A stretch of DNA of 64,000 nt, taken from IMG/VR virus record IMGVR_UViG_3300026549_000062, positions 1 to 64,000 of that record; one strand, written 5' to 3'. The position numbers were made by a program, and so were the translations under genes. The notes below the pieces were generated by a model. It saw only the letters and a list, made by a program, of their open reading frames with translations, did no database searches and was not told the origin of the DNA. Position 1 is the stretch's first letter, and each line of letters opens with the position of its first letter. This document shows positions 17,742 through 62,385 of the stretch, piece by piece. The DNA is from a virus (Duplodnaviria; Caudoviricetes).

Positions 17742-17787
17742 TATTAATGTGTGTAAAAGTATAAAATTTGAATTATATATTATTGGT

Positions 17788-18095
17788 ATGATGTAGAAGA
17801 GAGATAATCGAAACACGTATTGATCGTCGTAAGATATGATGTTTCAGAAAGGAAGGTGATAGTATGATCTATCATAATTTTAAGGGAAGAAATCACCCTT
17901 ACAACGGTATGAACTATACTATTGGCTATGGTACCAACAACCTCGGTCAAAAAGTAACGTATATCGTTACAAAAAAACGGGATTAAATCTGTAAGGATTT
18001 AATTACCTAGCCACGTTCAACTCTCTATATGATTATGCTAAGCAGATAATTATATAATAATACAAACCTGCTGTATCTCTTCTACATCATTTTTA
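17788..18095 (+). ncRNA. End-paired RNA C containing a small ORF
   Basis: Perfect 17 bp inverted repeat 17788-17804/18074-18090 directly after an early promoter and followed by a T run. Confidence 0.65.
17864..17986 (+). CDS. Small basic peptide (40 aa) inside RNA C
   Basis: GGAAGGTGA RBS; MIYHNFKGRNHPYNGMNYTIGYGTNNLGQKVTYIVTKKRD; N-terminus matches the peptide at 62111. Confidence 0.65.
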   Translation: MIYHNFKGRNHPYNGMNYTIGYGTNNLGQKVTYIVTKKRD

Positions 18096-18173
18096 TGTTA
18101 TTTATTTTTTACAAAATTAATAAACCAGAGCCCATTACAGACTCTGGTAATAGATTTGAACTTGATATAAAAA

Positions 18174-19121
18174 TTAGCGTGAAACATTACCGCCGTTCTT
18201 GGAGAAGTTAGCAGCAAGAGGACTACTGATATTCTTACCAGCGGAGTTAGCAGCTTCAACTTCATCGACCGTCTTCTCATTGTCACCAAGGATCTGATAG
18301 CCGAATTCCATTTCATCAAAGCAGGTGTTTTCATTGATATACTCAAGGAAGTCACATGCTTTGCTGTTAACAATTTTACCAGAAATAGGAATACCATTGT
18401 ACTGGACAGCCATTTCATTGAAGCCAATTTCACCACGGGTAACGTTGTAGATACTCGTATTAGCAAGAGATGGCTGGCAAGATGCAAGGATATATGCCTT
18501 TTCAACATTAAGAGCTGTATTGTCTGTGACAATAAGCAGATAATGGAAAATTTCGTACTGGTAACCCTTATCGTTCATAAGGTTATTAGAAGAACTATTC
18601 GAGGTTTCTTGTGTATTGCCACGAGAGGTAAGTCTACCACGAAGAAGGCCATTGTATCTCTTAACCTGCGTACGTGGATCTTTGATACCACGAAGGAAGA
18701 GTTCATGTGTCTTTGTAATGATAGAACCAGAACGCTCGAAGTAGTTCATCGTAAACGAAGAACCACCCTGCTCTGTAACTCTCGTAATAATATTAAGGTC
18801 AGTAATACCATTTGAAAGTGGAGAAGTTTCTGACGTAATATCTTCAATACCCTGAGCACCACGGAACTCATACTCTATGATATGACGATAGTTATCAATT
18901 AGAGTCTTATAACCACCAGTTTCCTGAGACATGCTGCAAAGCTTATCAAGGAACGTTGGAATCTGGAGACAAATAAGGAAGCTATAACCAGTTTCGTACA
19001 GATCAAACTGAGCAAGGTTAGTGTAATCTGTAACACCACGGAAGAGTGTATACTGCGTAACCGGTGTAGGAGCTAGCGTATCTTGGAAGATGTTGTCAAC
19101 TGTTTCGCCGTTATTAGTCAT
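18174..19121 (-). CDS. Tail tube protein (gp19-like)
   Basis: 315 aa beta-rich ORF immediately downstream of the sheath gene in a late operon. Confidence 0.75.
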   Translation of the reverse strand: MTNNGETVDNIFQDTLAPTPVTQYTLFRGVTDYTNLAQFDLYETGYSFLICLQIPTFLDKLCSMSQETGGYKTLIDNYRHIIEYEFRGAQGIEDITSETSPLSNGITDLNIITRVTEQGGSSFTMNYFERSGSIITKTHELFLRGIKDPRTQVKRYNGLLRGRLTSRGNTQETSNSSSNNLMNDKGYQYEIFHYLLIVTDNTALNVEKAYILASCQPSLANTSIYNVTRGEIGFNEMAVQYNGIPISGKIVNSKACDFLEYINENTCFDEMEFGYQILGDNEKTVDEVEAANSAGKNISSPLAANFSKNGGNVSR

Positions 19122-19141
19122 TTCTAATCACACCCTCCCTA

Positions 19142-21103
19142 TTAAGACTGAAGTGCTATGATCTTAAAGACTTCTGTCTGAACGAAGTTACGGAACTTCA
19201 GTTCAATTGTTGCATAGATAATCTTGTTCGAATCATAGTTGGCATTAGTAACGTAATTGATTGTGCAGGACTGGAATCTATCCGCATAACGGTCGATTAC
19301 CATGTTCTGAACATCTTTCTTATATTTAACAAGATCGTCGCCATCAAGGAAGCTATAACGGATCTTCGGGCAAAGAGCACGAATAGCCTTAATAAGCTCC
19401 TGAACAGCAAGAACGTTATTAACCCAAGAAAGCTGAGTAAGTTCTGTCTGTGAAGTATACTCTGTATTCATCGTAAGGATGTTTCCATCGTAGTAAGACA
19501 GATAATTTATCCTAAGAGTATCAAATGTCTTTCTCTGGTCTTCGCTTGGTGTACGCTTTGGAGAGAAATTAAGTGTACCATCAACAAAAGTATCTGATGG
19601 AATAACAATATCATACTTCTGACCGCAGAATGGACGTACACGACCATTGATAAAATGCTTAACAAACAGACGTGCAAGATCATACATGACTGTTACTGTG
19701 ATCTGTTTACGAGTATACGGATCGTAAATATCATAGCTGTTCATGTAAGATGCACAGAATCTTGAATGTGAGCCATACGTATCAATGAGCTGGACCATTG
19801 CAAGACCATTTACTTCTGTACCAAAGTCACGGAAGTAAACAAGATCTTCACGGAAGTTTGCAAGACTTTCAATTGATCTCTTAACTTCCTGATGATAGTT
19901 AGCATCAAAGATGCAGTCAACTCTGTTATTATCGAGATCGTAAATATCATCACCATCATCGAGGTCAGAGTTAATACTACCACTAAATGCCTTCTTCATT
20001 ACAACGTCAACAACATTCATTGCACCGCTAGCACCCTTAGCGAGCTGGGCTGGTGAATCTGTGAAGTTACCGTTGCTGCCATTTGGAAGTGGGAAACCAA
20101 TTAGTGGAGAAAGCATCGTTGCACCATCTGTGTTATAATGCTTAATAGCCTTACCAGATAGATCAATACCGAAGAGTGGATCTTTCCTATCAAAATTGGT
20201 TGTACCAGTTAGGAAGTTAACGTTTTCAATGAAGTCCTCATAAATATCATCAAAGAACTTGCATCTAACCTGATATGAACTCGTAAGAATAGCATTCTGG
20301 AGAGACATGTTATGTTCTTTTTCAATTATATCAGGATTAAGTGTGAATGGAATTGTTTCAAGAACTTCACCATTCTCACTAACTTCAACGAAATAACGGG
20401 AATAAACTGTTGGATGAGAAACAGTAGAATCCGGATAAATACGGATTCTCTTATTTGATTCGCCACGACCGTTATCCGTTATAATGAAAAGTGGATAAAT
20501 GTTGTTGTTACCAACTGGAACTTTTGTATAGCCGGATTTAGCAAGACTTACATACGTGCTCATCTTTACACAACCAACCATACCAGGAAGTGAAGAAAGA
20601 ATGTATGAAACATTCGTGCAAGCTACAGTATGAGGACCTGTAACAGTTGCAGTTGATGGAATAGACATAGTACCAGGGGTTGGCATTGTTGGATTAGCTA
20701 CTGTACCAGTTGTACTAGAAGCACTATCAACCCAATCCCAAAGAGGTACACTTGACTCATCTGTATCCTGTTCTGTACCCTGCGTTATTTTAGCAGAAAC
20801 AACAACGTTTGCGAGAGTTGAATCATCTGCGCAAACACGTTTTACGGTTAAATAACCACCGGCATTGATAATATTAGCTGCCTGAAGTAGAGGCTGACCA
20901 TGTCTCTTAAATGAAGGAGTTCTTCCATAATATTTAAAGAAGTCTTCACCATAGACTTTATGCTTCCATTCCTCAGGACCTTTGTCAGCGGTTATAACAG
21001 TCATAAATATCGGGCGATCTACAGTATCTTCCTCAGGGGGAGTTATTCCAGAATTGATCTGAGACTTGTCAACCCATTCGATTGTTACACCAGGTACTGG
21101 CAT
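19142..21103 (-). CDS. Tail sheath protein
   Basis: MPVPGVTIEWVDKS start; C-terminal QLSWVNNVLAVQELIKAIR...IIYATIELKFRNFVQTEVFKI sheath signature; late motif at 21220-21231. Confidence 0.9.
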   Translation of the reverse strand: MPVPGVTIEWVDKSQINSGITPPEEDTVDRPIFMTVITADKGPEEWKHKVYGEDFFKYYGRTPSFKRHGQPLLQAANIINAGGYLTVKRVCADDSTLANVVVSAKITQGTEQDTDESSVPLWDWVDSASSTTGTVANPTMPTPGTMSIPSTATVTGPHTVACTNVSYILSSLPGMVGCVKMSTYVSLAKSGYTKVPVGNNNIYPLFIITDNGRGESNKRIRIYPDSTVSHPTVYSRYFVEVSENGEVLETIPFTLNPDIIEKEHNMSLQNAILTSSYQVRCKFFDDIYEDFIENVNFLTGTTNFDRKDPLFGIDLSGKAIKHYNTDGATMLSPLIGFPLPNGSNGNFTDSPAQLAKGASGAMNVVDVVMKKAFSGSINSDLDDGDDIYDLDNNRVDCIFDANYHQEVKRSIESLANFREDLVYFRDFGTEVNGLAMVQLIDTYGSHSRFCASYMNSYDIYDPYTRKQITVTVMYDLARLFVKHFINGRVRPFCGQKYDIVIPSDTFVDGTLNFSPKRTPSEDQRKTFDTLRINYLSYYDGNILTMNTEYTSQTELTQLSWVNNVLAVQELIKAIRALCPKIRYSFLDGDDLVKYKKDVQNMVIDRYADRFQSCTINYVTNANYDSNKIIYATIELKFRNFVQTEVFKIIALQS

Positions 21104-21301
21104 CGTGAGATTCCTCCTTTATATCAAGTTTCAAAGCTATATTATTTTATATAAGATAACTTATCATACTTTTGTTTTAAGTAAGCGGATTATTAGCATA
21201 ATAGAGTAGCCTACCTAATTACTTATATGTTCCTAAACGTCCTCTGGGGTTGCTTGAAACACATTGAAAAGTCTACACCAATTAAGGTGTAGACTTTAAC
21301 A

Positions 21302-22057
21302 TTATTCTTCCGTATCTGTATCACCAACAAGTACTTTTTCAAGTGGGGTATCTTTAGGAGTCTGATTAAGCATACCATAAGCAATAGATTCATCAAAATC
21401 TTCTGATAGAATGGCAGTATATGGAGAAACTAGTTTAGATATTTGTTTTACAGAGCAGGATTTATATTTATGAAGATCTGTTTCTTTGGCTAATCTAAAT
21501 GGAACGGATTCATCTTTCTGTGATCTACATAATTCTGATACTGTAAATCCAATAACCTGTATATTTAGTCCATATCCGTTACCATTCAATGCTATATTAT
21601 CCAGTATATAATCCGGAAGTTTATCATATGGAATCGTATTCAATATGAACCCAAGCATATACCAAAGATTGAGTAACTTTTCGCAATTACCAACGAATTG
21701 TATAGTAGATGTTGAGGTTACTATTTCATCTCCATCTTCATAATGAAGAACTCTATAATCCATCTCGTCCATATAATTAGTAAGTTTTACTTTTCTTACT
21801 TTTTCTACAGATGAAGGCTTAGTAGTAAATACTGTAGGATATCTAAAGTTCTTCAATCCTATATTTTTACCAGTCTTAGTATCTGTAACTGTATAATCGA
21901 ATATACCGAGTATATCTATATATTCACCATTTTGTTCTGCTATAGAACGTTCAAAATACTTCTCTGGTACATAAGCTAAGAATTCTTTATTAGGTCCACC
22001 ATTAAACAAGAGTTTTTCTTTGTCTTCTTTTATAAAAGAAGGAAGTCCATTAGCCAT
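21302..22057 (-). CDS. Probable far C-terminal beta' fragment of the virion RNAP
   Basis: DYILDNIALNGNGYGLNIQVIGFTVSELCR and SVKQISKLVSPYTAILSEDFDESI...PLEKVLVG parallel RpoC ([45 protein letters not shown]...LKENVIVG); late motif at 22082. Confidence 0.6.
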   Translation of the reverse strand: MANGLPSFIKEDKEKLLFNGGPNKEFLAYVPEKYFERSIAEQNGEYIDILGIFDYTVTDTKTGKNIGLKNFRYPTVFTTKPSSVEKVRKVKLTNYMDEMDYRVLHYEDGDEIVTSTSTIQFVGNCEKLLNLWYMLGFILNTIPYDKLPDYILDNIALNGNGYGLNIQVIGFTVSELCRSQKDESVPFRLAKETDLHKYKSCSVKQISKLVSPYTAILSEDFDESIAYGMLNQTPKDTPLEKVLVGDTDTEE

Positions 22058-22107
22058 TAATATACCTCCTTATATATTCATTATGCGAATGTCTTAGACA
22101 GAAAATA

Positions 22108-22135
22108 TGACCTAGGCTAATATTAGCCTAGGTCA
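22108..22135. terminator. Intergenic hairpin/terminator
   Basis: TGACCTAGGCTAA-ta-TTAGCCTAGGTCA. Confidence 0.65.
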
Positions 22136-22180
22136 TTAAAGTGTGTAAAACTCTTTATTTTGAGTTACATACTGTGTTTA

Positions 22181-22445
22181 TGAGATAGAGAATGTTTATA
22201 TAAAGTAGGAGGTAATCTCTTATGGATACATTCAAAAACACATATTTAGAGTCTTGTATTCTTCCTCCATCTCCAATAACAAAAGAAGAATATGATGAGT
22301 TAAGTGACAAAGAAAAGAGTATGATAAAAATCATTACTCCTTTCTTTATTTATGATAATAACTTTAATTACAGGATAAACCTGTAAACGTAACATAATAC
22401 ATTTCTCTATCTCACTGGAGGATGTTCGCAGCATCCTCTTTTACT
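22181..22445 (+). ncRNA. End-paired early transcript D containing a small ORF
   Basis: TGAGATAGAGAATGT (22181-22195) pairs with ACATTTCTCTATCTCA (22399-22414); terminator at 22418-22445. Confidence 0.5.
22222..22386 (+). CDS. Small protein (54 aa) inside transcript D
   Basis: AGGAGG RBS; MDTFKNTYLESCILPPSPITKEEYDELSDKEKSMIKIITPFFIYDNNFNYRINL. Confidence 0.7.
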   Translation: MDTFKNTYLESCILPPSPITKEEYDELSDKEKSMIKIITPFFIYDNNFNYRINL

Positions 22446-22550
22446 TTTTTGTTTATAAAGCATTTAATGTGTAAAAGTCGATTTTTTCATTGATATAATA
22501 TAGAGATGAAGAAGATCAACCATAACTAGTTTACTTAGGGGGTAAACATC

Positions 22551-22829
22551 ATGACGAAACTTGAAGCCAAATACATCGGACTCATTCTCTGCGTTCTCTC
22601 CCGCAACTTCATCGACGAAGTAAAGGTTCCCGAATATGAAGAACTCGGGAAACTGATGAGGGCTTTGGCATTTCTCCAGAAAGGAGAATGCTCCAAAGCA
22701 GCGAAGAGAAACATCGACTACATCTGCTGGGAATATGGAGACTCGCTGTCGAAGAAGTTCCAGGAGCACTACAAAGAGTTCAAGAACATGACTCCGACGC
22801 TTGAAACCCACTACGACCTCCGTAAGTAA
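22551..22829 (+). CDS. Small early protein
   Basis: Early promoter 22470-22505; GGGGG RBS; C-ending codon usage. Confidence 0.8.
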   Translation: MTKLEAKYIGLILCVLSRNFIDEVKVPEYEELGKLMRALAFLQKGECSKAAKRNIDYICWEYGDSLSKKFQEHYKEFKNMTPTLETHYDLRK

Positions 22830-22887
22830 TCAAGCAGCATCGCCAGATGTAAAAATGGAAAACAATGCTAGGTCTTGACAGACATCG

Positions 22888-23643
22888 TCATTGTTTTTCT
22901 TGCAAACGTTTAGCTAAGAGATTATGGAACATCTCTTCATCTTTTTTACAAAATCTTTTTTCATCATTTTTAAGAAGAGTCTTAAATGCTAAATCATTAT
23001 TAGCATGAATATCCGCACCATGGTCTATAAGTCTCATAGCATCTTCATAATTTCCGTGTTTAATAGCAATAGGAAGAGATATAGAATTGCACTTACTTGG
23101 ATCTGCACCACAATCTAATAGCTTGGCTAGTAATTTAGAACTATTATCTAGTTTAGCAACTCCTACTAAACCATCGCCATTACCAACATTACCAAATGTA
23201 CCAAACATAGGTTTTATATTATTATCTTCTGCATATTTGCATATCTTACCAAAGTATGCAGTATCATTAGTAGATAAAATAGAAAGAAGCACAGAATCTA
23301 TAATTCTAGACTTTTCTTCATCTGTAAAATCATTTGTATCTATATAGAGTTCTATTAATCTACTAGTAAACTTTTTATCATACTTTGTTACTATAGACGC
23401 TTTTATAATATCTGTAGACATAATGTGTTCATCTATGAAGTATTTAACTATATCATTCATCTTATTCTTAAACAGAATACCCCATAAGACTTGGTTTTCC
23501 CACCAACGTTTATATTTTACTATGGAAGGAGTTTTTGCTATATCTTCGTCTGTGGTCTCATTTTCGATATAATCAAAATCTTTAATGTTTATTTTTCTTG
23601 CTTTTAATAGAGACATAACCTGTTGTTTGGATACTATTCTCAT
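22888..23643 (-). CDS. Ankyrin-repeat protein
   Basis: LLAKLLDCGADPSKCNSISLPIAIKHGNYEDAMRLIDHGADIHANNDLAF is a canonical ankyrin GAD motif repeated twice. Confidence 0.8.
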   Translation of the reverse strand: MRIVSKQQVMSLLKARKINIKDFDYIENETTDEDIAKTPSIVKYKRWWENQVLWGILFKNKMNDIVKYFIDEHIMSTDIIKASIVTKYDKKFTSRLIELYIDTNDFTDEEKSRIIDSVLLSILSTNDTAYFGKICKYAEDNNIKPMFGTFGNVGNGDGLVGVAKLDNSSKLLAKLLDCGADPSKCNSISLPIAIKHGNYEDAMRLIDHGADIHANNDLAFKTLLKNDEKRFCKKDEEMFHNLLAKRLQEKQ

Positions 23644-23705
23644 ATTTGCTAAACCTCCATAATAAAATCTCCTAGAGAAATTCTCTAGGAGATTGTATTT
23701 TCTTT

Positions 23706-25202
23706 TTAATCTTCTTTAAATAACCATTTATCACTGAGATTTGTGTATAGACCAGGAGAATCATCCCTATTAACCATAAGAAGAAGATCTTTATAATTCT
23801 TTCTTACAGTGATTCCTTGAATATCTGTATTTACTTTGTCATAATCTGGATTCTGAAGAACCTCTTTAACTATAGGAGAATCTTTAGATATAGCAGCATT
23901 AGGAACAAATGTACCACCTGTTGTAGTAGATGAACCGGTTGTTCTACCACCAGATGCTACACCACCTTTAACTGTAGCTCCTATAATTACATTACCAACT
24001 TTAGTACCACCTATAATAGTACCACCAGTTACTACACCACCAGTAGTGGTTAATTTATTATTTCCAGATGGTTTTGTAATACCACCAGAAATAACATAGG
24101 TTTTATCATCATCTTTTATAGAGTATGCAGTGCCACCATTTACAATACCACCAGTTGTTATACCACCTGTGGTAATATCTCCAGCTGTAATACCGCCAGT
24201 AGTAACCATATCAGATCCAGTAACCATACCATCTATAACTATAGCATTAGAGAGTTCTGGTTCTATTACAGTACCTCCTTCAGTTTTGCAATCCGTAATG
24301 ATAGAATCTATTATTACAGCTTCTGATATAATACCTTTAACAGTAGCATTAGTTACATAACCAGTTGTTGGATCTTTGTCTCCATCTATATCACCAGATA
24401 TAGCAATAGCATTTAGTATATAACCACTTGCTATAGAACCATTAGTAGAAGTGCCATTAATTACATAAATCTCATGACCACTTCTATTAGTTCCTTTGGC
24501 TATACCATCTACTGTCTTAGAGCCATTTAGAGAACCCTGTACAATAACACCTTTAAGAATATTACCATTAGCATCTAGCTCTGCATTAGTAACTATAGCA
24601 TCTTTTATAAGAGCTGCTACAGTAGTACCATAAGAATGCGTAGATGTGTCTATAGTAGTATCTTCATCAGCATATTTTACATAAGCTCTTACATCTCTGA
24701 TTTGATCTGATTTGATAACAACTACATTGTTATTATAGTTTACAGAGCAATCTAACTTAATTTTATATATACCAGTTTCTTCATCTAATGCATATACTTT
24801 ATATATATCTTTTACCATACCAGAGCATTGTTTTAATTCACCATCTTCTAGATATTGAATCGTATACATATTTCCTGGTATAATATCTACAGCATGATTA
24901 AAATCTGTATTTGTATAAATCATCTCTATTGTGAGAACTATCTTAGCTGTAGTTTCTACATTAGTAAGCATTGTAGTAGTATGAGCACATTCACAATTGC
25001 ATGTTAATGGGCCATCTTTTCTATAAAGACCACTCATAATACCTGGCTGTGAAACAGATATTTTATTGGTACAATCGTGACCGTATTGATGATTCCACGT
25101 ACCATAAAATGCTGGTGGATTAGGATCAAATATATGATTTATATCATTGCAATCATGGAAGACTACATGCTCATGAAAATGATTGTTGCAGTTGCATGAC
25201 AT
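23706..25202 (-). CDS. Virion structural protein with His/Cys-rich N-terminus and Gly/Thr beta-helix repeats
   Basis: Late motif 25230-25241; repeats such as TTGGITAGDITTGGITTGG and TTTGGVVTGGTIIGG. Confidence 0.6.
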   Translation of the reverse strand: MSCNCNNHFHEHVVFHDCNDINHIFDPNPPAFYGTWNHQYGHDCTNKISVSQPGIMSGLYRKDGPLTCNCECAHTTTMLTNVETTAKIVLTIEMIYTNTDFNHAVDIIPGNMYTIQYLEDGELKQCSGMVKDIYKVYALDEETGIYKIKLDCSVNYNNNVVVIKSDQIRDVRAYVKYADEDTTIDTSTHSYGTTVAALIKDAIVTNAELDANGNILKGVIVQGSLNGSKTVDGIAKGTNRSGHEIYVINGTSTNGSIASGYILNAIAISGDIDGDKDPTTGYVTNATVKGIISEAVIIDSIITDCKTEGGTVIEPELSNAIVIDGMVTGSDMVTTGGITAGDITTGGITTGGIVNGGTAYSIKDDDKTYVISGGITKPSGNNKLTTTGGVVTGGTIIGGTKVGNVIIGATVKGGVASGGRTTGSSTTTGGTFVPNAAISKDSPIVKEVLQNPDYDKVNTDIQGITVRKNYKDLLLMVNRDDSPGLYTNLSDKWLFKED

Positions 25203-25228
25203 TGAGAGAACCTCCTTTATTCATTTCA

Positions 25229-25921
25229 TTAATGAGATGTGGAGTTTACCTCTTTAAGTCTATTATGCTCTAATACAACAATATAGTTTATCATTTTGAT
25301 ATAGTTTCTAGCGCAGTCTAGAATCCATGGATATTTATCTACTGTTTCTTGAGTACAATAGGAAAGGGTAGATAGATTATTCATTATATTCATTATATAC
25401 CAGATATTGGCATAATCATATGGAGATATAGAGAATGCATATCTAGATAGAGCAGCAGTAAATAAAATATCATAATCTTCCGATAAGTTATCTTTATTTG
25501 TTAAATGATATCCAAAAGCCATACTAAAAGCTCTAACAATATCTGGTAGATAATAAGAATCAAAATCAAACCCGGACTTATATACTATGCTATATAAATC
25601 ATTGAAAGTTCTATTTAATCTATTTTTTTTAATTGCTTTAGATAGATTTGGCTTTTTAGAAGATACAAAACCAATAAGAGGAATAGAGATAGTATCCTTA
25701 CACATAGCTTGTATAAATCCGATAAAACAGGTTCTAACAAGCTTCTTTTGATTATCTGTAAGATCACCATCGCTTTTGGCCATTTGATAAATGTGTTTCA
25801 TTCCTTCTTCTTTAGTTTCAAAAGAATCGTGAAAAACTTTATAAAATTCTTTAGCATATTTGATTCCGAGACATTTGGAGAACATGTTTTCGGTTTGAAT
25901 AGCTTCATCTTCTAATACCAT
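25229..25921 (-). CDS. Hypothetical protein
   Basis: 230 aa ORF in the late operon downstream of terminase. Confidence 0.75.
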   Translation of the reverse strand: MVLEDEAIQTENMFSKCLGIKYAKEFYKVFHDSFETKEEGMKHIYQMAKSDGDLTDNQKKLVRTCFIGFIQAMCKDTISIPLIGFVSSKKPNLSKAIKKNRLNRTFNDLYSIVYKSGFDFDSYYLPDIVRAFSMAFGYHLTNKDNLSEDYDILFTAALSRYAFSISPYDYANIWYIMNIMNNLSTLSYCTQETVDKYPWILDCARNYIKMINYIVVLEHNRLKEVNSTSH

Positions 25922-25925
25922 GATA

Positions 25926-26720: not shown

Positions 26721-26805
26721 ATCTAATCCTCCTTTAATCAATTAATGTATTGTTTTTAAAAAATTCAAAGTATATACTAGAGGCTAATAAAAGCCTCTAG
26801 TATTT

Positions 26806-29097: not shown

Positions 29098-29187
29098 TAA
29101 ATTTCACTTCTTTCACAAGATACTGTTTTACTAGAAAGTTGGAAAGTTAATTTTGTTTACATACTATAATAGTGAGGAGATGATAAA

Positions 29188-29943: not shown

Positions 29944-29986
29944 CCTATATAGGATGGGATATTATTCCCATCCTATATAAATTTTT

Positions 29987-30808: not shown

Positions 30809-30819
30809 GATACATTCCT

Positions 30820-34466: not shown

Positions 34467-34478
34467 GTTTATCACCTC

Positions 34479-50791: not shown

Positions 50792-50891
50792 AAAATTTCC
50801 TCAACTTTAATTGTGGGTAGGAATTTTAAATCCTACCCACAATCTATATTTTCTAGTAGTTTATAAAATTCTTATTTAATAATTATGTTCT

Positions 50892-52844: not shown

Positions 52845-52859
52845 ATTGTTTCCTCCTAT

Positions 52860-53522: not shown

Positions 53523-53600
53523 GTATCTCTATCTCCTAAAAATAAATCACTCCATAAGACTTTCATCTTATGGAGTGATATTCTTATAAGATAATTTAAA

Positions 53601-54368: not shown

Positions 54369-54488
54369 ACATAGTCCTCCTTAAAAATAAATGAACTATA
54401 AAGATGTTGAAGACGTTGTAAAGTACTAGAGGACAAAGCCTCTAGTACTCTTTATCTTCATAATAATAGTATGTAAACAAAAAATCTT

Positions 54489-55664
54489 TTACTGCATATC
54501 AGCAGCTTTGTATGTATTAATCATCTTTCTCTGTGGAACGTAATAACCTTTACTTGTAATCTGTTTACGTCTTTTTGCAAGCTCTTGGTACATAGCATTC
54601 CACTGTTTAAATGCATCTTTATCTGTCTCATGATTTTCTGCATAATCTTTCATGAGCATCATATTATTATTTATAGAATGAAGAAGATCTGGAATTGCAT
54701 CCGGCTCATTGTGATCTAGATTCTCTTGCTTAAGAACAATACCAACTAAATCATTCTTTGAAATATCCAGACAATCAAATACGTTTGTATCTACTGGGTA
54801 TTTGGATTTACGAATAGATTCTAATAGAGGGTCTACAGACTCTAGTAGAGTATCATCATCTATACGAGATAATCTACGGGCCATATTATTCATTTCTTTT
54901 CTCTCTATTTGTGATGCAGTGAGTAGCTGGCAACGTTGTAGAGTTTTTAGAGCTCTAATACGATTACCAAGAACGTCTTTATAAATTCTCATTACCCAAG
55001 AGAGACAAATAAATTTATTATCTACTTCTCTATTGTAGTTATCCCACATCTTATCTATCTTATTGAAACCAGACTGTACACAATCTGCATAATTGGTCCA
55101 TGTAATAAAGTCTGCCATTATATCGTTCTCTCTATCATAAGAGCCTTTTTCAAATATAGTAGTAGACTTTCTAACAGCATCTCTAAAACCATAAGATAAA
55201 ATTTCTTTATAATGGATAGAATCAGATAGCTTTAAAGTCTCATGATTATCTTTAAGATACTGGTCTATATTCTTATTTACTTCTTCACATGGAGAAGAGT
55301 CATTAACCATAGAACCAATATCATGAATAAGAAGAGCAGTTATCTCTTTCTTAGTAAGGTTTACAGTAAAGCTAAAGAGTTTAGAATCTAGTTCTACATA
55401 GTATTCTTTTACTCTATAACGTTTGTCTGTAGTAATAACTTTTATAACCTCATCTGCTGGAATAACTGGCATTGTATATATACCGAAGAATAGTTTATCT
55501 ATATTATTTGTATATATAACACCTTTGCACTTAGAATCATTAAAGAATTTATTTAAAGAATCTCTTAATTCATTAAGAAACTTTTGAGAAGGATCACTCA
55601 TTATATTAGTGACACTTATTTCCACGTCTTCATAAGCATCTTTTATTTTACTTTCTGAAAGCAT
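54489..55664 (-). CDS. Putative head (inner) structural protein
   Basis: Late motif 55696-55707; LLES/LLES candidate cleavage sites. Confidence 0.55.
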   Translation of the reverse strand: MLSESKIKDAYEDVEISVTNIMSDPSQKFLNELRDSLNKFFNDSKCKGVIYTNNIDKLFFGIYTMPVIPADEVIKVITTDKRYRVKEYYVELDSKLFSFTVNLTKKEITALLIHDIGSMVNDSSPCEEVNKNIDQYLKDNHETLKLSDSIHYKEILSYGFRDAVRKSTTIFEKGSYDRENDIMADFITWTNYADCVQSGFNKIDKMWDNYNREVDNKFICLSWVMRIYKDVLGNRIRALKTLQRCQLLTASQIERKEMNNMARRLSRIDDDTLLESVDPLLESIRKSKYPVDTNVFDCLDISKNDLVGIVLKQENLDHNEPDAIPDLLHSINNNMMLMKDYAENHETDKDAFKQWNAMYQELAKRRKQITSKGYYVPQRKMINTYKAADMQ

Positions 55665-55735
55665 ATGTATATAAACCTCCTTAGCACAGACATATTAACA
55701 AGATGTCTCTGAATGCTTATTTTAGGAGGTTTGTA

Positions 55736-55891
55736 ATGAATAATAGAGCTTTGAATGATTATACAGCAAATAAAAGTAATGAAGTAAAGAAAGATTGGAA
55801 AGAACCTAAAAAAGTAGATAAGATAATTGATAGTGATTCTCCAATGGAGAATAGTAATACATCATATGTGTATGCAGGAAAAAATAAATAA
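55736..55891 (+). CDS. Small hypothetical protein
   Basis: AGGAGG RBS before ATG 55736; terminator 55899-55923. Confidence 0.55.
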   Translation: MNNRALNDYTANKSNEVKKDWKEPKKVDKIIDSDSPMENSNTSYVYAGKNK

Positions 55892-55949
55892 AAAATAATC
55901 CCAGAGCTTGATTGCTCTGGGATTATTATATTAATTGAACCTAAGTGTA

Positions 55950-56492
55950 TTACTTAGATTCACTGGAGGATGCATTTTCATCCTTCTGTGGAAGGTTTGG
56001 CTTCACACCATAGAGACTCTCAAGACGGTTCCTTGCTTCGCTAGCGAGATGATTGATCTCACTCTTATCGTGAAGTTTCAGAATCTCTTCTTTATAGCTA
56101 TCAACAATGCTCTTTGATGCAATGTTGAAAGCACTGAGAATCTCCGGTGACGGAGCAGTACTTTTGAGGATAATATGACTCTGGCAAATTGTGATACGAG
56201 CGATAGCACCATAACGGATACGGTCAAGATTTGCTTCGACACGCATCTCCTCAAGAGTATTTCTCATTTCATCTGTAATGAAAGAGCAATCTTCAAGTCC
56301 TTCATAGCGCTTGAGATCGTTCTCAATCGGATTGAATTTCTTTTTCTTTCCGTTGCTTTCAATTTCATTCTTTTTACGGAATTCTTTCTGGTTTTCATCC
56401 AGCTTCGAATCACTGCTGTCTACTACAGCCTTAAGCTTTTTGAGGTCTTCCTGCGAGACTTCTGCTTTTTCATTTTTGATTTCTTCTGACAT
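55950..56492 (-). CDS. Early hypothetical protein
   Basis: GGAGG RBS before ATG 56492; C-ending codon usage; long structured leader from the early promoter at ~56680. Confidence 0.8.
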   Translation of the reverse strand: MSEEIKNEKAEVSQEDLKKLKAVVDSSDSKLDENQKEFRKKNEIESNGKKKKFNPIENDLKRYEGLEDCSFITDEMRNTLEEMRVEANLDRIRYGAIARITICQSHIILKSTAPSPEILSAFNIASKSIVDSYKEEILKLHDKSEINHLASEARNRLESLYGVKPNLPQKDENASSSESK

Positions 56493-56746
56493 TTTGTTTT
56501 CCTCCAGTTTCAAATTGTCTATTAGCAACTCCTATATTACTAATAGAACTAGTCTCTGATATTTGTATAGAATAGATATATTTATCCCATACTTATATCT
56601 TACTCAGTAATCTCATTTCATTTTCACTATCCTCCTTAGAATGAAATGAGATATAGTATAATTGAATAGATATACTATTCACTAATATAGTATGTAAATG
56701 AAAAAAATATTAAAAATCCGCAGACTATACAAATCTGCGGATTTCA

Positions 56747-56923
56747 TCAGAGAACATTGTACTTCACGATAGTGAAGACAATGCCCTCTTTGGTAACCAC
56801 ACGGTTGTTTTTGATTTCCTCGTTTCCAACGCGGTCCTTGATGCATTCCACTGCATTTTCAAGAAACTTAAACTTGTTGCCGAGGAAATCATGGCCATTC
56901 ATTTTTACAACAAACATACACAT
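56747..56923 (-). CDS. Small early protein
   Basis: TGACGTAATATAG-type promoter 56961-57000 (minus); AAGGAG RBS; terminator 56715-56742. Confidence 0.7.
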   Translation of the reverse strand: MCMFVVKMNGHDFLGNKFKFLENAVECIKDRVGNEEIKNNRVVTKEGIVFTIVKYNVL

Positions 56924-57039
56924 ATGAATCATCTCCTTCGTTATACATGTGCTGTTTATCACTTCTATATTACGTCAATAAAAAAATACTATTTTTACAA
57001 AAATATAGGGCTAGACCATATTGGTCTAGCCCTAATAAG

Positions 57040-57234
57040 TCATAATACAGGTTCTTCAACAATATAATACTTGATATTCTGTACATCTTTCTCTTCATAG
57101 ATAGATTCTAATTTTTCTTTATAGATTGAAGCATCCATTTTTTCTTTGAAGATATAGATAAGATTATTATCTATTTCTCCGTTTAGTTTCTGATATGCCA
57201 TAAAGAGTGCATATACTACTTCTTGTTGTTCCAT
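57040..57234 (-). CDS. Small early protein, related to the 41541 family N-domain
   Basis: VYALF...IYIFKEKMDASIYKEKL...YYIVEEPVL; AGGAGG RBS; early promoter 57275-57300. Confidence 0.7.
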   Translation of the reverse strand: MEQQEVVYALFMAYQKLNGEIDNNLIYIFKEKMDASIYKEKLESIYEEKDVQNIKYYIVEEPVL

Positions 57235-57303
57235 AAGATTTACCTCCTATACATATGATATTACCATACCATATCTATAGTATGTAAATCAAACAACATT
57301 TAA

Positions 57304-57330
57304 AAGGGTAGACCAATTTGGTCTACCCTT
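57304..57330. terminator. Terminator downstream of the capsid gene
   Basis: AAGGGTAGACCA-at-TGGTCTACCCTT-like hairpin. Confidence 0.7.
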
Positions 57331-57354
57331 GAATAGTCTAGATAAAAATTTATA

Positions 57355-59403
57355 TTAGTGTTTACCACCATTAACTGGAGGGAAAATTGTTGATGGATTA
57401 GCAGGAGCTGGGTTTGATGGATCATATGTTGCATAGTTTGGTCCATAGATGTACTTAACATCACGAACAGCATCTGCGAATTCACCTGGAGCAGCCGTCT
57501 CAGGATCAATAGCGCTATGTGGCGTGTTAGGAATTGCATCCTTATCGAACTCAACAAACTTCTTCGTATCTCTATCATACGTAACTTTGTTAGCCGTATA
57601 GTCATTCATAGCACGATCACCAATTGGATTATCATTGTCGATCTGCTCACGGAGACCCGTCGGGTTGACAATCTGGATACGACCCTGAACTGGCTGATAG
57701 CTGATGAAGAGGAATCTCTCAAAAGCCGTTACAGCTGGGAGCTGGTAGTTATCCGTATCACGGATTTCATTACCAACGTAGAGCTGATAATCGTAAATCT
57801 TGTAGATTACACGATTGCTGTTTCTTGGGCAAAGAATAATGATAAGGTTGTTATCATTACGAAGCTTGTTTGAAGAAATGAACTGATAAATACGATTATC
57901 ACTCGTCTTAACAGTCTTCTTATAATCAAGCATAACAGGACCAATGTTTGGAGGCGTTACATAAGAATACTCTTTTGGTGTAATCTTACGGATGAGTTCT
58001 GGACGACCAAAAATACTAACAGTTACATTCTCATCATTGAGAACCTGGAGGAGATACGTAACCTGAGTATCAAGGTAATCCATGAACGTCTCATAACGCC
58101 ACGTAACGAAGGACCCCATGAAGCTGTCAGGAGGAGCAAAATCAAATGCACCAGAGACTTTGGAGGTCTGTGGGAGGTTGAGGAAGGACGTATCGAGATC
58201 TTCAAGAATCTTATCATCCTTGTAGTTGAGAAGCGCAAGCTTGATCATGCTCATGATCTTCGTGAGCTGATTGACGTTGTACATAGCCTGAACGTCTTTC
58301 GTCTCTTCTGGGGAGATCGTGACCGTGATGTGTGGTGCTTCTGGAATCTCGAAGTAATCCGTACGAGCGCTCCATTTAACTTTTGGCGTCTCATATGCTG
58401 CACTTGAAACATCAAGAGCTGCAGAAAGGATAACATGCGTAACATTAGCTGACGTGCTCATGAACGTAAACTTGTTGTTATGCATTGAACCAGCAAGCTG
58501 GAACTCTTCATTACGAACTGTACCCGTACCATCCGTTGGAAGAATCATATCAATTCTCTTCTGGAACGTACGATCATACTGACCAAATGAAGCAACAAAA
58601 CGAATTGGCTCAATTGGAATAATCTTCTCAGCAAGAGCACCAGTATCAGACGTATAAACCTGAACCTTCTTCTGGCCAGGATTATCTGGATCATCAACTA
58701 GAACTTCGTCACCCTTTGTTGCCCAAACATCTTTGACAACGAGTTTCGTGACCTTTGATGCACGAGAAACATTTGCCGTAGCTCTATTAACAGCACCAAG
58801 TAGGCCAAGAACATCTGTCTTCTGGTCTTCTGGAACTGGGATAATAATATCCTTACGAGGAACAGCAGACTCAATCATATCCTTGATCTTGTTCTGCTCA
58901 AGGAACATATCAATCTGCGTACCATCTGGAGCATAAAGAGTTCTCGTTTCCATGGTGAGCGTGAACTGTGGACCAGCAGCTACATCCTTTGGAATTGCAC
59001 CTTTATCAAATACAGTCGTCATAAGAAGATTCTTATGCATTGGGAAGGTAATACCAACCACTGGGTTATAAGCACCAAGTGGAGCAGCCTCACAAAGACC
59101 ATTAACATCGTTCTCATAAAGACGATTAAGGTCAGCATAAGCTTCATTAACAGCTTCTGGATCATCCTTATACTTAGGATCATTTGGGTCAAATGCAGAC
59201 TCGATGAAGAACTTCTTCATCTGATTTGAAAGTGTCGGATTCTGGAAGAATCTTGACGGATCAGAATAGAAATCAACACCCTCATTTAGACCTGCCTTAG
59301 CAATATCAGTAAACTGCTCAGCAAGGCCGTGGAGCGGATTTTTATTATAACTACGAAGTACTTCGCTATTCTGCTGTTTTTTATCTGTTCCAACAACAGC
59401 CAT
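57355..59403 (-). CDS. Major capsid protein (HK97 fold, jumbo-phage type)
   Basis: 682 aa; strongly biased high-expression codons; late motif 59523-59534; N-terminal propeptide ending GLCE/AAPLG; SPEETKDVQAMYNVN...LALLNYKDDKILEDL resembles the gp23 TQELAQDL...IMxEINREV region. Confidence 0.85.
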   Translation of the reverse strand: MAVVGTDKKQQNSEVLRSYNKNPLHGLAEQFTDIAKAGLNEGVDFYSDPSRFFQNPTLSNQMKKFFIESAFDPNDPKYKDDPEAVNEAYADLNRLYENDVNGLCEAAPLGAYNPVVGITFPMHKNLLMTTVFDKGAIPKDVAAGPQFTLTMETRTLYAPDGTQIDMFLEQNKIKDMIESAVPRKDIIIPVPEDQKTDVLGLLGAVNRATANVSRASKVTKLVVKDVWATKGDEVLVDDPDNPGQKKVQVYTSDTGALAEKIIPIEPIRFVASFGQYDRTFQKRIDMILPTDGTGTVRNEEFQLAGSMHNNKFTFMSTSANVTHVILSAALDVSSAAYETPKVKWSARTDYFEIPEAPHITVTISPEETKDVQAMYNVNQLTKIMSMIKLALLNYKDDKILEDLDTSFLNLPQTSKVSGAFDFAPPDSFMGSFVTWRYETFMDYLDTQVTYLLQVLNDENVTVSIFGRPELIRKITPKEYSYVTPPNIGPVMLDYKKTVKTSDNRIYQFISSNKLRNDNNLIIILCPRNSNRVIYKIYDYQLYVGNEIRDTDNYQLPAVTAFERFLFISYQPVQGRIQIVNPTGLREQIDNDNPIGDRAMNDYTANKVTYDRDTKKFVEFDKDAIPNTPHSAIDPETAAPGEFADAVRDVKYIYGPNYATYDPSNPAPANPSTIFPPVNGGKH

Positions 59404-59570
59404 TGTATAATTCCTCCTTTAAAGGTCTTTGTCTATATTAATTAATATAACAAAGTCATTATTTAAATATTCAAAATATAGCAACGGTATATAACGAAAG
59501 CCGCAAAAAGCTATATTGATATTACAGTGATGTTTATAAAAGGACTTTCTAATGCACTAAATATAAAGGG

Positions 59571-60431
59571 TTATTGTATCTCATAATTCCTACTAAATGT
59601 AGGAAGATCAAGAAAACTCTTATTGTGTTTGACCTCTTTATTTATAATCTCAGTAATCTTATTCTGACGTTTAATACGAGATTCATAGACTTTGTCCATA
59701 AGATTCGTGAGATAATTAAATACTGTAATCATTCTCTGAAGCTCTATCTCATTCTCTAAATACGTTCTTGTATTGAATGTATCTGTCAGAGTGTCTCTAG
59801 ATAAGTTCTTTAGAGCTAGAAGTTTTCTTACAATGAAATTTAATAATTCATCATCATAAGAAGTATGAGATATCTTATTTATCTTATCAATAGAATCAAT
59901 GATAATAGAATTGAGAGATCTAAATTGTTTTCTCAATTCTTTCTTCTTAATCTCCATTTGCTCTGGTTTAAGATCTTTGAAAGTATCTTGTTCTAATTGA
60001 TCTAGATCAACTGTTTGAGCTTCTGGAGATTCAGCAGACATTTCATCTCCTTCAGGAGCTTGCAAATCACTACCGTCATTATTAGGATCTTGAGGTTGTT
60101 CTTCCTGTTGTCCTTGCATTTGTGCATTAGGATCATTTGAATCTGCAGCTCCCATATCCATTCCTTGCTGATCAGGACCTTGAGCACCCATTTGTGTAGG
60201 ATCTCCTTGTGGAGCTCCTTGTTGAGTTGGATCCGGTTGCATACCAGTATCCTGTTGTTGTGATGATGCTTGTGGTGCTGCGCCCTGCTGAGCATTAGGA
60301 TCTTGTTGCTGAGTAAAATCAGGAACGTCTTGTTGATTTTGATCTATTTTATTCTGTACCGCAGGAGTTTGATTTGGTTGTTGTTTAGGAGGATTAGCTT
60401 CATGAAGTATGAATCTAGTAAATGCATCCAT
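59571..60431 (-). CDS. Putative scaffold / inner-core protein, Gln/Pro/Asp-rich N-half
   Basis: Directly upstream of the MCP gene; ILHE/A site; QQDP-type low-complexity repeats followed by helical domain. Confidence 0.55.
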   Translation of the reverse strand: MDAFTRFILHEANPPKQQPNQTPAVQNKIDQNQQDVPDFTQQQDPNAQQGAAPQASSQQQDTGMQPDPTQQGAPQGDPTQMGAQGPDQQGMDMGAADSNDPNAQMQGQQEEQPQDPNNDGSDLQAPEGDEMSAESPEAQTVDLDQLEQDTFKDLKPEQMEIKKKELRKQFRSLNSIIIDSIDKINKISHTSYDDELLNFIVRKLLALKNLSRDTLTDTFNTRTYLENEIELQRMITVFNYLTNLMDKVYESRIKRQNKITEIINKEVKHNKSFLDLPTFSRNYEIQ

Positions 60432-60438
60432 TATATTT

Positions 60439-61920
60439 TTATTCCTCCTTTCTCTCTGATTTATCTGCAACTTGTTTAAATTTATCTAAAACAGTTGGTA
60501 CTTTCTCGCCAACTGGATTTACATAACTTTGATTTGAAATACTGGAGAAATCAGGAGAATCTATTCTTCTCTTTATTTCATCATTAAGTTCATCTGTTGT
60601 TTTGTCTCGTTGTTTATCATACTCTTTTTCTAATAATTCAATGTTATTATTTACACTATCAAGATATGCAAGAAGTTTAGACTTCCTCTCACTATCTTTA
60701 GTATCTTCTATCTTTCTTTCTATAGAGCGTTTATGCTCTTTCCATTCTCTAATAGAATCTTTTAAGTATTCTTTATTCAGATGAGAATGAAGAATGATAG
60801 AAGTTATAAAGCTTAAAATACCAGGGAATATACCTACAGAGAATGCACCAAGAGTTACTAATGCATAGAAAGCAATTGCTAATGCATTATGAGTACCTTG
60901 TGCTATATCCTGTAATCTATTTATAACAAATACTGCTCTTATAGCTTCTTTAACCATTGATACTGTCTTATATGGAGCTATCTTAATCTTAGTGATTAAT
61001 TCTTTTGCTTTATCCAGTATAGCAACCTCATATATTGCTTGAAGTGATTTATTCATCACAGCAAAATCATCAAACGATTTAGACATTCCATACACAGAAT
61101 CATCTTTGTATTTATTAAGAACTTCTTTGTCATAATCAGGTTCTTGATTATTCATCTTCTTATATACAGAATCAATATAATTTATATATTCTTCTGCAAT
61201 AGGAGATATAAAGTTATCGTTCCTAATAGCACAAGATATATCTTCTATAAAGCTATCAGTATTTGTAGTACCATAATTTATAATAAAATAATCTATTACA
61301 TTCTCTAGTATAGCTTTCTCTGGTAATTGAGAAGTGTAACGATTAATTGCATACAAACAAGACTCTGTACAAACACAGAACTTTTGTTTTAATCCCATAT
61401 TATAAGTATCTATGAGTTCACAAAGAGAGTATACAAGATCTGTAATTCCTGTATTCTCTAGAATAGAATTGGCAACTATCTTGTCTATATTAAATCTCTT
61501 CATTATAGTATTATAGTTCCCAACTACTCTATCACAATCCACTTGCTCAGCTATCTTTTCTTTTATGGGCTCTGAAAAAGATTCTTCTAACTTGTTGAAG
61601 TAAGATTTATACATGTTGGGGTTTGGTAGTGAAGAGATAATATAATCATTTACTATTCTAAGTGCATTGTTCTTATCATCTATTGAACCATTCTCTTGAA
61701 CAACAGACAATATATCTACAACTTTCTTTATATTTGAATCTAATCTATTTGAATAATTATCCCACTTATACAGACTCTCAGAGAGATTATTAAAATTATA
61801 TAACTCTTTTATCTTATAAGTTTCATATAGAGGGTAATTAGTAAGTGTTCGTTGCTTTCTATATTCTAGATTATTTGTTCTTTCTTCGATAGCTTTAATT
61901 GGAATTAGAACCTTCTTCAT
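60439..61920 (-). CDS. Putative head structural protein
   Basis: Late motif 61950-61961; cotranscribed toward the MCP; LYE/LSE/ILE/IYE candidate cleavage sites. Confidence 0.55.
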   Translation of the reverse strand: MKKVLIPIKAIEERTNNLEYRKQRTLTNYPLYETYKIKELYNFNNLSESLYKWDNYSNRLDSNIKKVVDILSVVQENGSIDDKNNALRIVNDYIISSLPNPNMYKSYFNKLEESFSEPIKEKIAEQVDCDRVVGNYNTIMKRFNIDKIVANSILENTGITDLVYSLCELIDTYNMGLKQKFCVCTESCLYAINRYTSQLPEKAILENVIDYFIINYGTTNTDSFIEDISCAIRNDNFISPIAEEYINYIDSVYKKMNNQEPDYDKEVLNKYKDDSVYGMSKSFDDFAVMNKSLQAIYEVAILDKAKELITKIKIAPYKTVSMVKEAIRAVFVINRLQDIAQGTHNALAIAFYALVTLGAFSVGIFPGILSFITSIILHSHLNKEYLKDSIREWKEHKRSIERKIEDTKDSERKSKLLAYLDSVNNNIELLEKEYDKQRDKTTDELNDEIKRRIDSPDFSSISNQSYVNPVGEKVPTVLDKFKQVADKSERKEE

Positions 61921-62001
61921 TTAGTTGACCTCCCCATAAATACTTCACTTACCTTCATGTTTCAGTTTTTAATTCATTGGTATATTTTGACAAAAGATAC
62001 T

Positions 62002-62026
62002 GGGGTAGAGGAATATCCTCTACTCC
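62002..62026. terminator. Intergenic hairpin/terminator
   Basis: GGGGTAGAGGA-ata-TCCTCTACTCC. Confidence 0.65.
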
Positions 62027-62074
62027 ATATAATTTTGTATAAAATTATAAAATTTGAATTATATACTATAATTG

Positions 62075-62385
62075 TGCATAAGAGGAGAAATAAGTTTAGG
62101 AGGTGATCTAATGACTTATCTAAACTTTCGTAGCAAAACATTTAAAAAGCCACCGTTTGTTAAAAGATTAAGGATGAGAAAAGCAAGTCCAACCCTTCCA
62201 AAGTGACTACTTATTATAGCCATCCTTATATCTGAATAAAAGCAGTAAATACTCCTGTATCATATGCGGTAGTATAACCATTACTGTGATTTGTTACTTG
62301 TGATAGATACACTAAGCAGGTATCTATTTCTGAAAAGCTCAAATTGATAGAGTTACTGCTGATCTCCTCTTATGCATTATTTTTC
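62075..62385 (+). ncRNA. End-paired RNA E containing a small ORF (paralog of RNA C)
   Basis: 14 bp inverted repeat 62075-62088/62363-62376 after an early promoter, followed by a T-rich tract. Confidence 0.65.
62111..62206 (+). CDS. Small basic peptide (31 aa) inside RNA E
   Basis: GGAGGTGA RBS; MTYLNFRSKTFKKPPFVKRLRMRKASPTLPK. Confidence 0.65.
   Translation: MTYLNFRSKTFKKPPFVKRLRMRKASPTLPK

Follow-up and report, generated by a model that had tools for sequence, protein, structure and literature searches.

Paralogous end-paired early RNAs encoding small peptides in an uncultured jumbo phage of the ruminant gut

Units C and E and their transcription signals

The window (the whole 64,000-nt stretch analysed here) is part of an 88-kb record of an uncultured giant phage from cattle and sheep gut, of which an RNA polymerase subunit matches those of LPJP1, Goe21 and staphylococcal jumbo phages at ~30%. 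Two of its short transcription units, C and E, are members of a set of at least four dispersed ~300-nt early transcription units in this AR9/PBS1-related rumen jumbo phage. Two further paralogues were found: F, which lies beyond the window but inside the record, and G, which lies on a 313-kb contig of a relative (L171) that also bears an allele of C. The features of C and E are as follows (coordinates of the window, strand, description):

17720-17739, no strand: hairpin terminator left of C, from sequence; would be expected to halt an antisense transcript before the portal gene
17763-17783, +: early (virion RNA polymerase-type) promoter of C, by motif family; putative +1 at G17790
17790-18088, +: RNA C, end-clamped, 299 nt, folding z -5.4, matched by stand-alone RNA contigs
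17790-17802, +: closing helix of C, 5' strand, 13 bp from +1
17810-17845, +: 5'-UTR hairpin of C, its loop GTCGTAA common to C and G
17851-17859, +: Shine-Dalgarno (SD) sequence of ORF C, from sequence
17864-17986, +: ORF C, 40 aa in the window allele, 45 aa in most relatives
17980-18007, +: hairpin across the end of ORF C, with a similar one in G
18026-18056, +: hairpin carrying the pseudoknot loop of C (9 nt, invariant, 18037-18045), its stem pairs covarying across the four paralogues
18068-18072, +: CUGCU loop partner in C, predicted 5-bp pseudoknot helix
18076-18088, +: closing helix of C, 3' strand, followed by a T tract
18088-18099, -: putative backward late-type promoter of C (AACA-N6-TG), by the AR9 late consensus; predicted start at the last base of RNA C
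18124-18148, no strand: hairpin terminator, right border of C, ending the late gene pair that lies upstream (by AR9 synteny, tail tube/sheath-like)
62002-62026, no strand: hairpin terminator left of E, from sequence
62049-62069, +: early promoter of E, by motif family; putative +1 at G62076
62076-62375, +: RNA E, predicted transcript, end-clamped, 300 nt, folding z -4.3
62099-62106, +: SD sequence of ORF E, within a local hairpin with the first codons
62111-62206, +: ORF E, 31 aa, net charge +10
62302-62328, +: hairpin carrying the pseudoknot loop of E (9 nt, 62311-62319)
62356-62360, +: CUGCU loop partner in E, predicted
62378-62389, -: putative backward late-type promoter of E (AACA-N6-TA), by motif

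The units are insulated cassettes, with hairpin terminators bordering C on both sides and E on the left. The 17-nt promoter variant that an earlier note had reported for C and E is confined to these two units within the window; it belongs, as a variant, to the early motif found across the genome (~30 copies) and is not a feature of the family, as F and G carry the common form. All 21 early promoters tested have a G 7 nt after TAT (TAT-N6-G), and the passages on AR9 transcription (PMC5312081) give the same motif with the G as +1. The AR9 late motif in those passages is AACA-N6-TA/G, and some AR9 late promoters drive antisense RNA (PMC5312081). A late motif of this type lies within 3 nt of the 3' end of the RNA in all four members (exact in C, E and G; F has a single mismatch), for which the chance expectation is 0.5-1% per site.

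Contigs of RNA C are present in four metatranscriptome studies. In three of these, stand-alone contigs (17788-18072, 17795-18071 and 17798-18055) are bounded by the predicted unit, while the fourth covers RNA C at a depth of about 190; the contigs carry no strand information. Unit C has the highest depth of a 14-kb stretch in three of the four runs and the second highest in run X16, although depth cannot rank genes here because the runs were chosen with that 14-kb stretch itself. The RNA contig of the tail tube/sheath-like operon ends at 18150 (run X15), next to the right border of C.

RNA fold and distribution of the family

The common architecture of C and E proposed earlier was confirmed, with neither RNA matched in folding by any of 100 shuffles. 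Folding z-scores among the cassettes range from -4 to -7.5. The genome is 31% G+C and many of its early transcripts fold well. RNA length is held at 291-300 nt across the members, while the ORFs vary from 31 to 50 aa. The RNA is predicted to start at the early-promoter +1 G, and its first 13-17 bases pair with the last ones; C, E, F and G form the top four 5'-end duplexes among 38 early starts. The helix of C, once given as 17 bp, is perfect over 15 bp in DNA (17788-17802 with 18076-18090), and 13 bp fall inside the RNA in both copies (from G17790 in C; 62076-62088 with 62363-62375 in E, from the putative start G62076). F has no T tract and appears to continue into a small ORF downstream. Through two-sided changes across the four paralogues, the closing helix and the 3' hairpin keep their pairing, and an ORF-internal hairpin is preserved in G by compensatory changes.

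The pairing of AAGCAG with CTGCTG, described earlier as a stem stacked on the closing helix, was found as 5 bp of AGCAG with CTGCT. AGCAG lies within the 9-nt loop of the covarying hairpin; the 3' end is thus predicted to fold as a pseudoknot of the H type and not as a plain stacked stem, and E alone can also adopt a nested fold. Loop and partner are invariant across the members while the stems vary, so that covariation supports the closing helix and the hairpin but not the loop-partner helix. The loop-plus-partner motif occurs exactly three times in the 88-kb record, each time at a cassette. TAGCCA, noted after the ORF in C and E, is missing from F and G and is not a family feature.

RNA family searches gave no match at the gathering score in the window (Rfam 15), and F, G and one allele of C had no meaningful match at E<=1 (Rfam); ARAGORN found no genes, and tmRNA, SRP, RNase P, 6S, ROOL, GOLLD and self-cleaving ribozyme families gave no model match (Rfam, ARAGORN). 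Resemblances to twister, pistol and hammerhead ribozymes, SRP helix 8 and anticodon loops, which have no model match, we take to be leads at most.

The homologue search suggested by the earlier note was productive in one respect: a protein profile alone located G, which proved to have the predicted helix, loop and partner. By contrast, tblastn of two peptides and blastn of C against cultured phages gave nothing significant, peptide-alignment scans of viral and genome contigs gave no relatives, and when viral, metagenome and genome contigs were scanned with DNA patterns, the matches listed were chance ones except for G in L171, which does not establish absence elsewhere. The best outside match of a sequence model (G002, E 2e-5) falls within an ordinary ORF, has no hairpin and was rejected. 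The cassette is missing at the syntenic site in three distant relatives, motif and peptide are both missing from two complete distant relatives, and the 30-kb piece of AR9 at the syntenic site has no such repeat. F and G are less conserved than their flanks (91% versus 98-99.6% and 94.7% versus 97.6-100%); the conservation of E is uninformative because both relatives compared are 100% identical over this region. No description of such elements or of the loop motif was found in the literature searched. Unit D of the window is alike in layout but has neither the pseudoknot nor the peptide family, and is not a member:

22182-22413, +: unit D, early mRNA with paired ends and an ORF of 54 aa at 22222-22386

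Peptides of the units

Both units have a ribosome binding site (RBS) and a short basic ORF, as first described (40 and 31 aa). The likeness of the peptide N-termini holds for M, Y and N, which are invariant; the similarity of C to E is weak, and the strong family is that of C, F and G. In E the likeness is limited to the N-terminal M-x-Y-x-N, the C/F/G profile gives no match, and the peptide does not fit the C/F/G fold. The C, F and G peptides are predicted to be cationic five-strand beta mini-proteins (AlphaFold2, 12-row C/F/G alignment, pLDDT 92), and the 45-aa form of C belongs to this modelled family; C alone gives a pLDDT of 69 with the C-terminal strands unchanged. The ORF length of C is split by a homopolymer at 17971-17977, with A6 in most relatives and A7 in the window. 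The window allele is frameshifted and lacks the last predicted strand, the same allele occurs in three RNA runs, and A5, A6 and A7 alleles all occur.

The residues common to C, F and G are encoded by different codons, while amino-acid changes concentrate at residues 19-29 and the central loop varies between strains. The earlier proposal that C and E are paralogous units of structured RNA and small peptide, in which structure and peptide are kept more than DNA, is supported. The peptides are hydrophilic (GRAVY -0.44 to -0.99; pI about 10-12), and the statement that they are unlike type I toxins stood, with a beta fold predicted.

Pfam, PHROG and PDB sequence searches gave no significant match to the peptide, ESM Atlas gave no usable match, and no fold or family search pointed to a function. 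Foldseek against PDB and viral models gave no match at E<=0.001, which does not imply a new fold; the best structural match (Z 3.5, rmsd 2.2, 41 aligned) is to fibronectin type I fingers, whose arrangement is common. The C/F/G family, a small, fast-changing protein with a predicted fold, is found in none of the databases searched.

Proposed role and alternatives

Jumbo phages have only minutes in which to take over the cell, with transcripts from an injected polymerase, and to our knowledge almost nothing is known of the control of their early RNAs. The favoured reading, held at about even odds (roughly 0.5), is that the units are stabilised mRNAs for a host-facing mini-protein and are silenced late by antisense RNA. 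The virion RNA polymerase would make an mRNA of ~300 nt from the +1 G, a start placed by the AR9 rule, and the pairing of its ends may hide both termini from host 5'- and 3'-exonucleases to give a long-lived, abundant message. The 3' pseudoknot would most likely be a second nuclease block, or a site for one common phage or host factor. Translation of the message would yield the small cationic beta-sheet protein (C, F and G), which is probably produced in large amounts and directed at the host. The fast-changing central loop suggests contact with a variable host target, as in host-takeover or counter-defence proteins, and marks the mini-protein as a candidate factor of this type. Late in infection, the non-virion polymerase may fire backward from the 3' end, and the resulting antisense RNA, of nearly full length, would remove the stable message or silence it.

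A precedent for the clamp is the hbs mRNA of Bacillus subtilis, in which a 14-bp helix joining the 5'-UTR to the 3'-UTR protects from RNase Y (PMC5737220). The phage helix is of similar length (13-16 bp) and likewise encloses one short ORF; the hbs helix controls RNase access in a Bacillota cell (PMC5737220), and a phage counterpart is proposed by analogy. The phage helix differs in that it begins at the first base, occurs in multiple copies and is accompanied by a conserved pseudoknot and a backward late promoter. Should clamping stabilise mRNA in Bacillota, it would offer a simple portable stabilising element.

Stabilisation of the message leaves the invariance of the 9-nt loop unexplained, and it is possible, at rather long odds, that the RNA is the main effector or truly dual-function, with a clamped RNA of fixed size offering its pseudoknot to a host protein (such as an RNA-sensing defence nuclease, the ribosome or the SRP machinery) as a decoy or an aptamer, perhaps with the RNA complexed to its own cationic peptide. 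Consistent with this are the RNA length held despite very different ORF and UTR lengths, the fixed loop and partner on changing stems, the retention in E of the RNA module with hardly the peptide, the tolerance of frameshift alleles of C that are still present as RNA, and the GTCGTAA loop shared by the 5'-UTRs of C and G. Conservation of the C/F/G peptide at the protein level, with a confidently predicted fold, speaks against this, as does the lack of an Rfam match. In addition, the AR9-like relative G002 has an analogous but unrelated pair of ~310-nt clamped mRNAs with a 68-aa ORF and no knot; thus, size and clamp alone are an mRNA design. A more elaborate form is tentative and slightly less likely still: a new class of phage dual-function RNA, in which the invariant pseudoknot of a clamped RNA of fixed size would bind a host factor, or form a small RNP with its own mini-protein, and so disarm host defence or capture translation early, while an arms race would select for change in the peptide loop and a late antisense RNA of full length would erase the module.

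The units are probably not a type I toxin-antitoxin system. A gated cassette resembling hok/Sok or aapA/IsoA, in which the full-length RNA is silent, 3' trimming to the pseudoknot frees the 5' end so that a toxic peptide is produced, and the active form is countered by antisense RNA, is unlikely. The phage units share with those systems 5'-3' long-distance pairing, a small ORF and several copies per genome, and they have a promoter motif where aapA/IsoA and hok/Sok have a cis antisense RNA (PMC6733600). In two studies the contigs run only to 18071 and 18072, where the pseudoknot ends, short of the 3' helix strand (a weak hint), and the SD lies in a local hairpin in E and F. The long-range helix of aapA3, however, includes the SD (PMC6733600), whereas the phage closing helix ends 10-65 nt upstream of it. 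Predicted RBS accessibility (0.34-0.45) is no different from the mean of 21 early mRNAs (0.41), and the translational gating by the closing helix suggested earlier is thus not supported. Type I toxins are small hydrophobic helices, unlike the hydrophilic, cationic phage peptides, and the antisense promoter is late-type, unlike in type I systems, which would place antisense after sense RNA, the wrong order for an antitoxin.

Far less probable is that the antisense promoter and end repeats serve an RNA-circle precursor, an RNA replicon that a phage polymerase copies, or a small mobile element of DNA bounded by terminal inverted repeats. The two transcripts, sense and antisense, would start with identical sequence, and the copies are dispersed and missing from the syntenic site of the three distant relatives; the end repeats, unlike transposon ends, differ between copies by compensatory changes, and no ribozyme or intron family matches. 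The circularisation raised in the earlier note also found no support, as no back-joint was seen in four RNA runs, a weak test limited to contigs. Chance resemblance of AT-rich intergenic DNA might be favoured by the base composition and well-folding early transcripts of this genome; it is effectively refuted by the blind recovery of G, and the folding scores and the exact placement of the motif at the three cassettes of the record also speak against it.

Among known phage units, those of AR9 share the early TAT-N6-G and late AACA-N6-TA/G motifs, and the passages of that report describe no clamped, pseudoknotted mini-gene family, unlike this phage (PMC5312081). The lncRNAs of Kayvirus are likewise abundant, come from intergenic units and have no known function; they are longer (525-570 nt), adjoin tRNA genes and are described as non-coding, with no similarity found (PMC7698491). 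The PeSL units of T4-type phages pair an early promoter with a stem-loop around small, non-essential, variably present ORFs; these use sigma70-like promoters and a recombining repeated sequence, whereas the present units have a phage-polymerase promoter, only short common motifs and paired RNA ends (PMC2839356). The family combines an end clamp, a 3' pseudoknot and a backward late promoter within 300 nt, a compact and testable design; its RNA motif is not in Rfam, and its beta mini-protein of 44-50 aa is uncatalogued. Such mini-genes mostly escape annotation.

C and E in an AR9-like phage

The 88-kb virus record that holds the window has a G+C content of 31% and a completeness of about 33%, and the sequencing runs that hold the stretch come mainly from cattle and sheep gut. 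The RNA polymerase subunit (62405-63910) is closest to those of Listeria phage LPJP1, Bacillus phage Goe21 and staphylococcal jumbo phages (about 30% identity), which identifies the phage, judging from sequence, as an AR9/PBS1-related jumbo phage; its complete relatives are 311-314 kb. The early promoter motif occurs in about 30 copies, and a G sits 7 nt past the final TAT in 21 of 21 early promoters tested. Given this spacing and the +1 G rule mapped experimentally in AR9 (PMC5312081), transcription probably starts at 17790 in C and at 62076 in E, two early units for which an earlier note had claimed a common architecture.

Both units are present where that note placed them, fold far better than their shuffles (z of -5.4 for C and -4.3 for E) and stand alone, bounded by terminator hairpins and lying on the other strand from their late neighbours. 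The closing helix, in which the first bases of the RNA pair with its last, exists in C as a perfect helix of 15 bp rather than the 17 bp claimed; 13 bp of it fall inside the RNA in C and E alike. The promoter variant and TAGCCA are indeed common to C and E, but are missing from the other members of the family and thus do not define it.

A family of at least four members with a predicted 3' pseudoknot

C and E join two paralogues from outside the window, F and G, in a real, undescribed multi-copy element that belongs to no tested catalogued RNA, protein or toxin-antitoxin family. F turned up when every early promoter was scanned. When a profile built from the C, E and F peptides was run against 1.8 billion proteins, a single new protein of 44 aa came back (E 1e-3), and its DNA (copy G) carries the closing helix, hairpin, loop and loop partner all exactly as predicted.

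Members of the family
17790-18088 (window), + strand: C, early unit of about 300 nt
62076-62375 (window), + strand: E, early unit of about 300 nt
81263-80973 (88-kb record, G000:C1; also contig L011), - strand: F, third paralogue, 50-aa ORF
3222-3521 (contig L171), 9922-10221 (L261), 630-929 (L265): G, fourth paralogue, in close relatives

G shares its 313-kb contig with a C allele; the anaerobic ribonucleotide reductase genes lie a few kb upstream of it, and a topoisomerase subunit gene follows it downstream. F lacks a T tract, and an RBS with a small ORF comes immediately after it; F may thus serve as the 5' domain in a longer mRNA. The RNAs measure 299, 300, 291 and 300 nt (C, E, F and G) despite ORFs of 31-50 codons. 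Their 5'-end duplexes are the top four among 38 early starts (-22 to -24 kcal/mol against a background mean of -11.7, sd 2.9), and the closing helix covaries among the four members, a qualitative argument from four related sequences and not a statistic.

All four members include a hairpin with the 9-nt loop RCUAAGCAG on a stem of at least eight or nine consecutive pairs (one bulge in F), most positions of which differ on both sides among the members. The final five bases of the loop pair with a CUGCU that lies 22-36 nt downstream, immediately ahead of the closing helix's 3' strand, and are predicted to form with it an H-type pseudoknot inside this clamp. The loop-plus-partner combination occurs at exactly three sites in the 88-kb record, namely C, E and F. 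Since the loop-partner helix is invariant, its support is conservation without covariation; in E the pairing alternatively folds as a nested stem. Three relatives (65-73% protein identity) lack the cassette at the syntenic site, and the motif and peptide were not found in two complete genomes of such relatives. Further copies may exist, as the sequence examined covers about a third of the genome.

The peptides of C (common 45-aa allele), F (50 aa) and G (44 aa) are 32-39% identical on alignment and share motifs at both ends (N-x-x-G-R/K-N and T-K-N-G), with many common residues encoded by different codons. AlphaFold2 gives a five-strand all-beta model (pLDDT 92 from 12 rows, 69 from C alone), for which no significant family or fold match was found. 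The claimed likeness of the E and C N-termini holds for the first residues only; the family profile does not match the 31-aa E peptide. In close strains the cassettes are more diverged than their neighbours. Amino-acid changes in F and G concentrate within the model's central hairpin, residues 19-29 (the counts are small, with 6 non-synonymous and 4 synonymous codons in each), and recombination or diversifying selection may account for this block replacement; in G, compensatory changes maintain the RNA hairpin beneath these codons. The A-run of C (17971-17977) has 5, 6 or 7 A, giving a 63-, 45- or 40-aa product. The window has seven versus six in most relatives and loses the last strand; three RNA runs contain the seven-A allele, a five-A allele exists too, and the polymorphism is possibly phase variation. 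The sequence GTCGTAA, within a 5'-UTR hairpin loop, is common to C (17826-17832) and G (5' UTR in L171) and absent from E and F; it is one base off a tRNA-Thr(CGU) anticodon loop.

Expression and proposed mechanism

C was found in four rumen metatranscriptomes from four studies, with stand-alone contigs at 17788-18072, 17795-18071 and 17798-18055, a depth of about 190 versus 27 for the adjoining late operon in the fourth run, and C as the only contig within the 14 kb compared in the smallest; the stretch itself served to pick the runs, and the contigs carry neither strand nor true ends, so these values give presence and approximate bounds only. No back-joint was found in the C contigs of the four runs. 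In two studies contigs break off at 18071-18072, where the pseudoknot ends, which hints weakly at 3' trimming or a reverse-transcription block.

On the opposite strand, the late motif AACA-N6-TA/G is placed to start within 3 nt of the RNA 3' end in three members (C, E and G); F has it with one mismatch (chance of 0.5% per site genome-wide, 1% beside T runs). The 3' T tract of the earlier note is present, but is mostly the reverse of this motif. In AR9 the same motif marks late promoters, seven of which drive antisense RNA (PMC5312081); by analogy, the backward promoter may be active in the cassettes.

The most likely reading, at a probability of about 0.5, is a cassette that would stabilise and then silence the message of a host-facing mini-protein. 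Base pairing from nt 1 would block 5'-exonuclease and pyrophosphatase from the message, the pseudoknot would guard or tag its 3' end, and a late antisense RNA would remove it. Denial of the 5' end is proposed because of what is established for RNase J1. It also has a precedent in the 5'/3' pairing that protects hbs mRNA in B. subtilis (PMC5737220). Working in this way, the element would resemble known 5'/3'-paired mRNAs with cis antisense control. The main rival, in which the RNA itself is an effector, is rather unlikely; its argument is that simple stabilisation needs neither an invariant loop nor a fixed size. The type I toxin-like gating of the peptide suggested earlier is more doubtful still: neither SD position, accessibility nor timing fits, nor does hydrophobicity, all family peptides being cationic and hydrophilic.

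Related clamped units

Clamped early units outside the family
22182-22413 (window), + strand: D, early mRNA with paired ends and a conserved 54-aa ORF, no pseudoknot
L406 near 6712 and L415 near 8519, - strand: clamped mRNAs of G002, with a near-match to the backward late motif in both
L414 near 8988, - strand (G002), and L400 near 10597, + strand (phage genome G005): early RNAs with a clamp, about 280 and 240 nt long

The complete distant relative G002 has two paralogous clamped early mRNAs of ~310 nt without the knot, encoding 68-aa proteins that are 44% identical to each other and unrelated to the C/F/G family. Together with D, which has the clamp alone, this pair makes the clamp look like a recurring design of AR9-like phages; the pseudoknot and beta mini-protein are what set C, E, F and G apart. 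At the D site, the relative L132 has two tandem small ORFs. An early mRNA with a 92-aa ORF (22508-22930) appears as a separate RNA contig in three runs (depth 85 in rumen run X15) and has weaker 5'-3' pairing ahead of a T tract. Promoter-driven, ORF-free structured stretches at 9385-9620 and 9659-9900, upstream of a 746-aa gene, gave no Rfam match. The L414 and L400 RNAs, with many hairpins and no clear ORF, are candidate non-coding RNAs.
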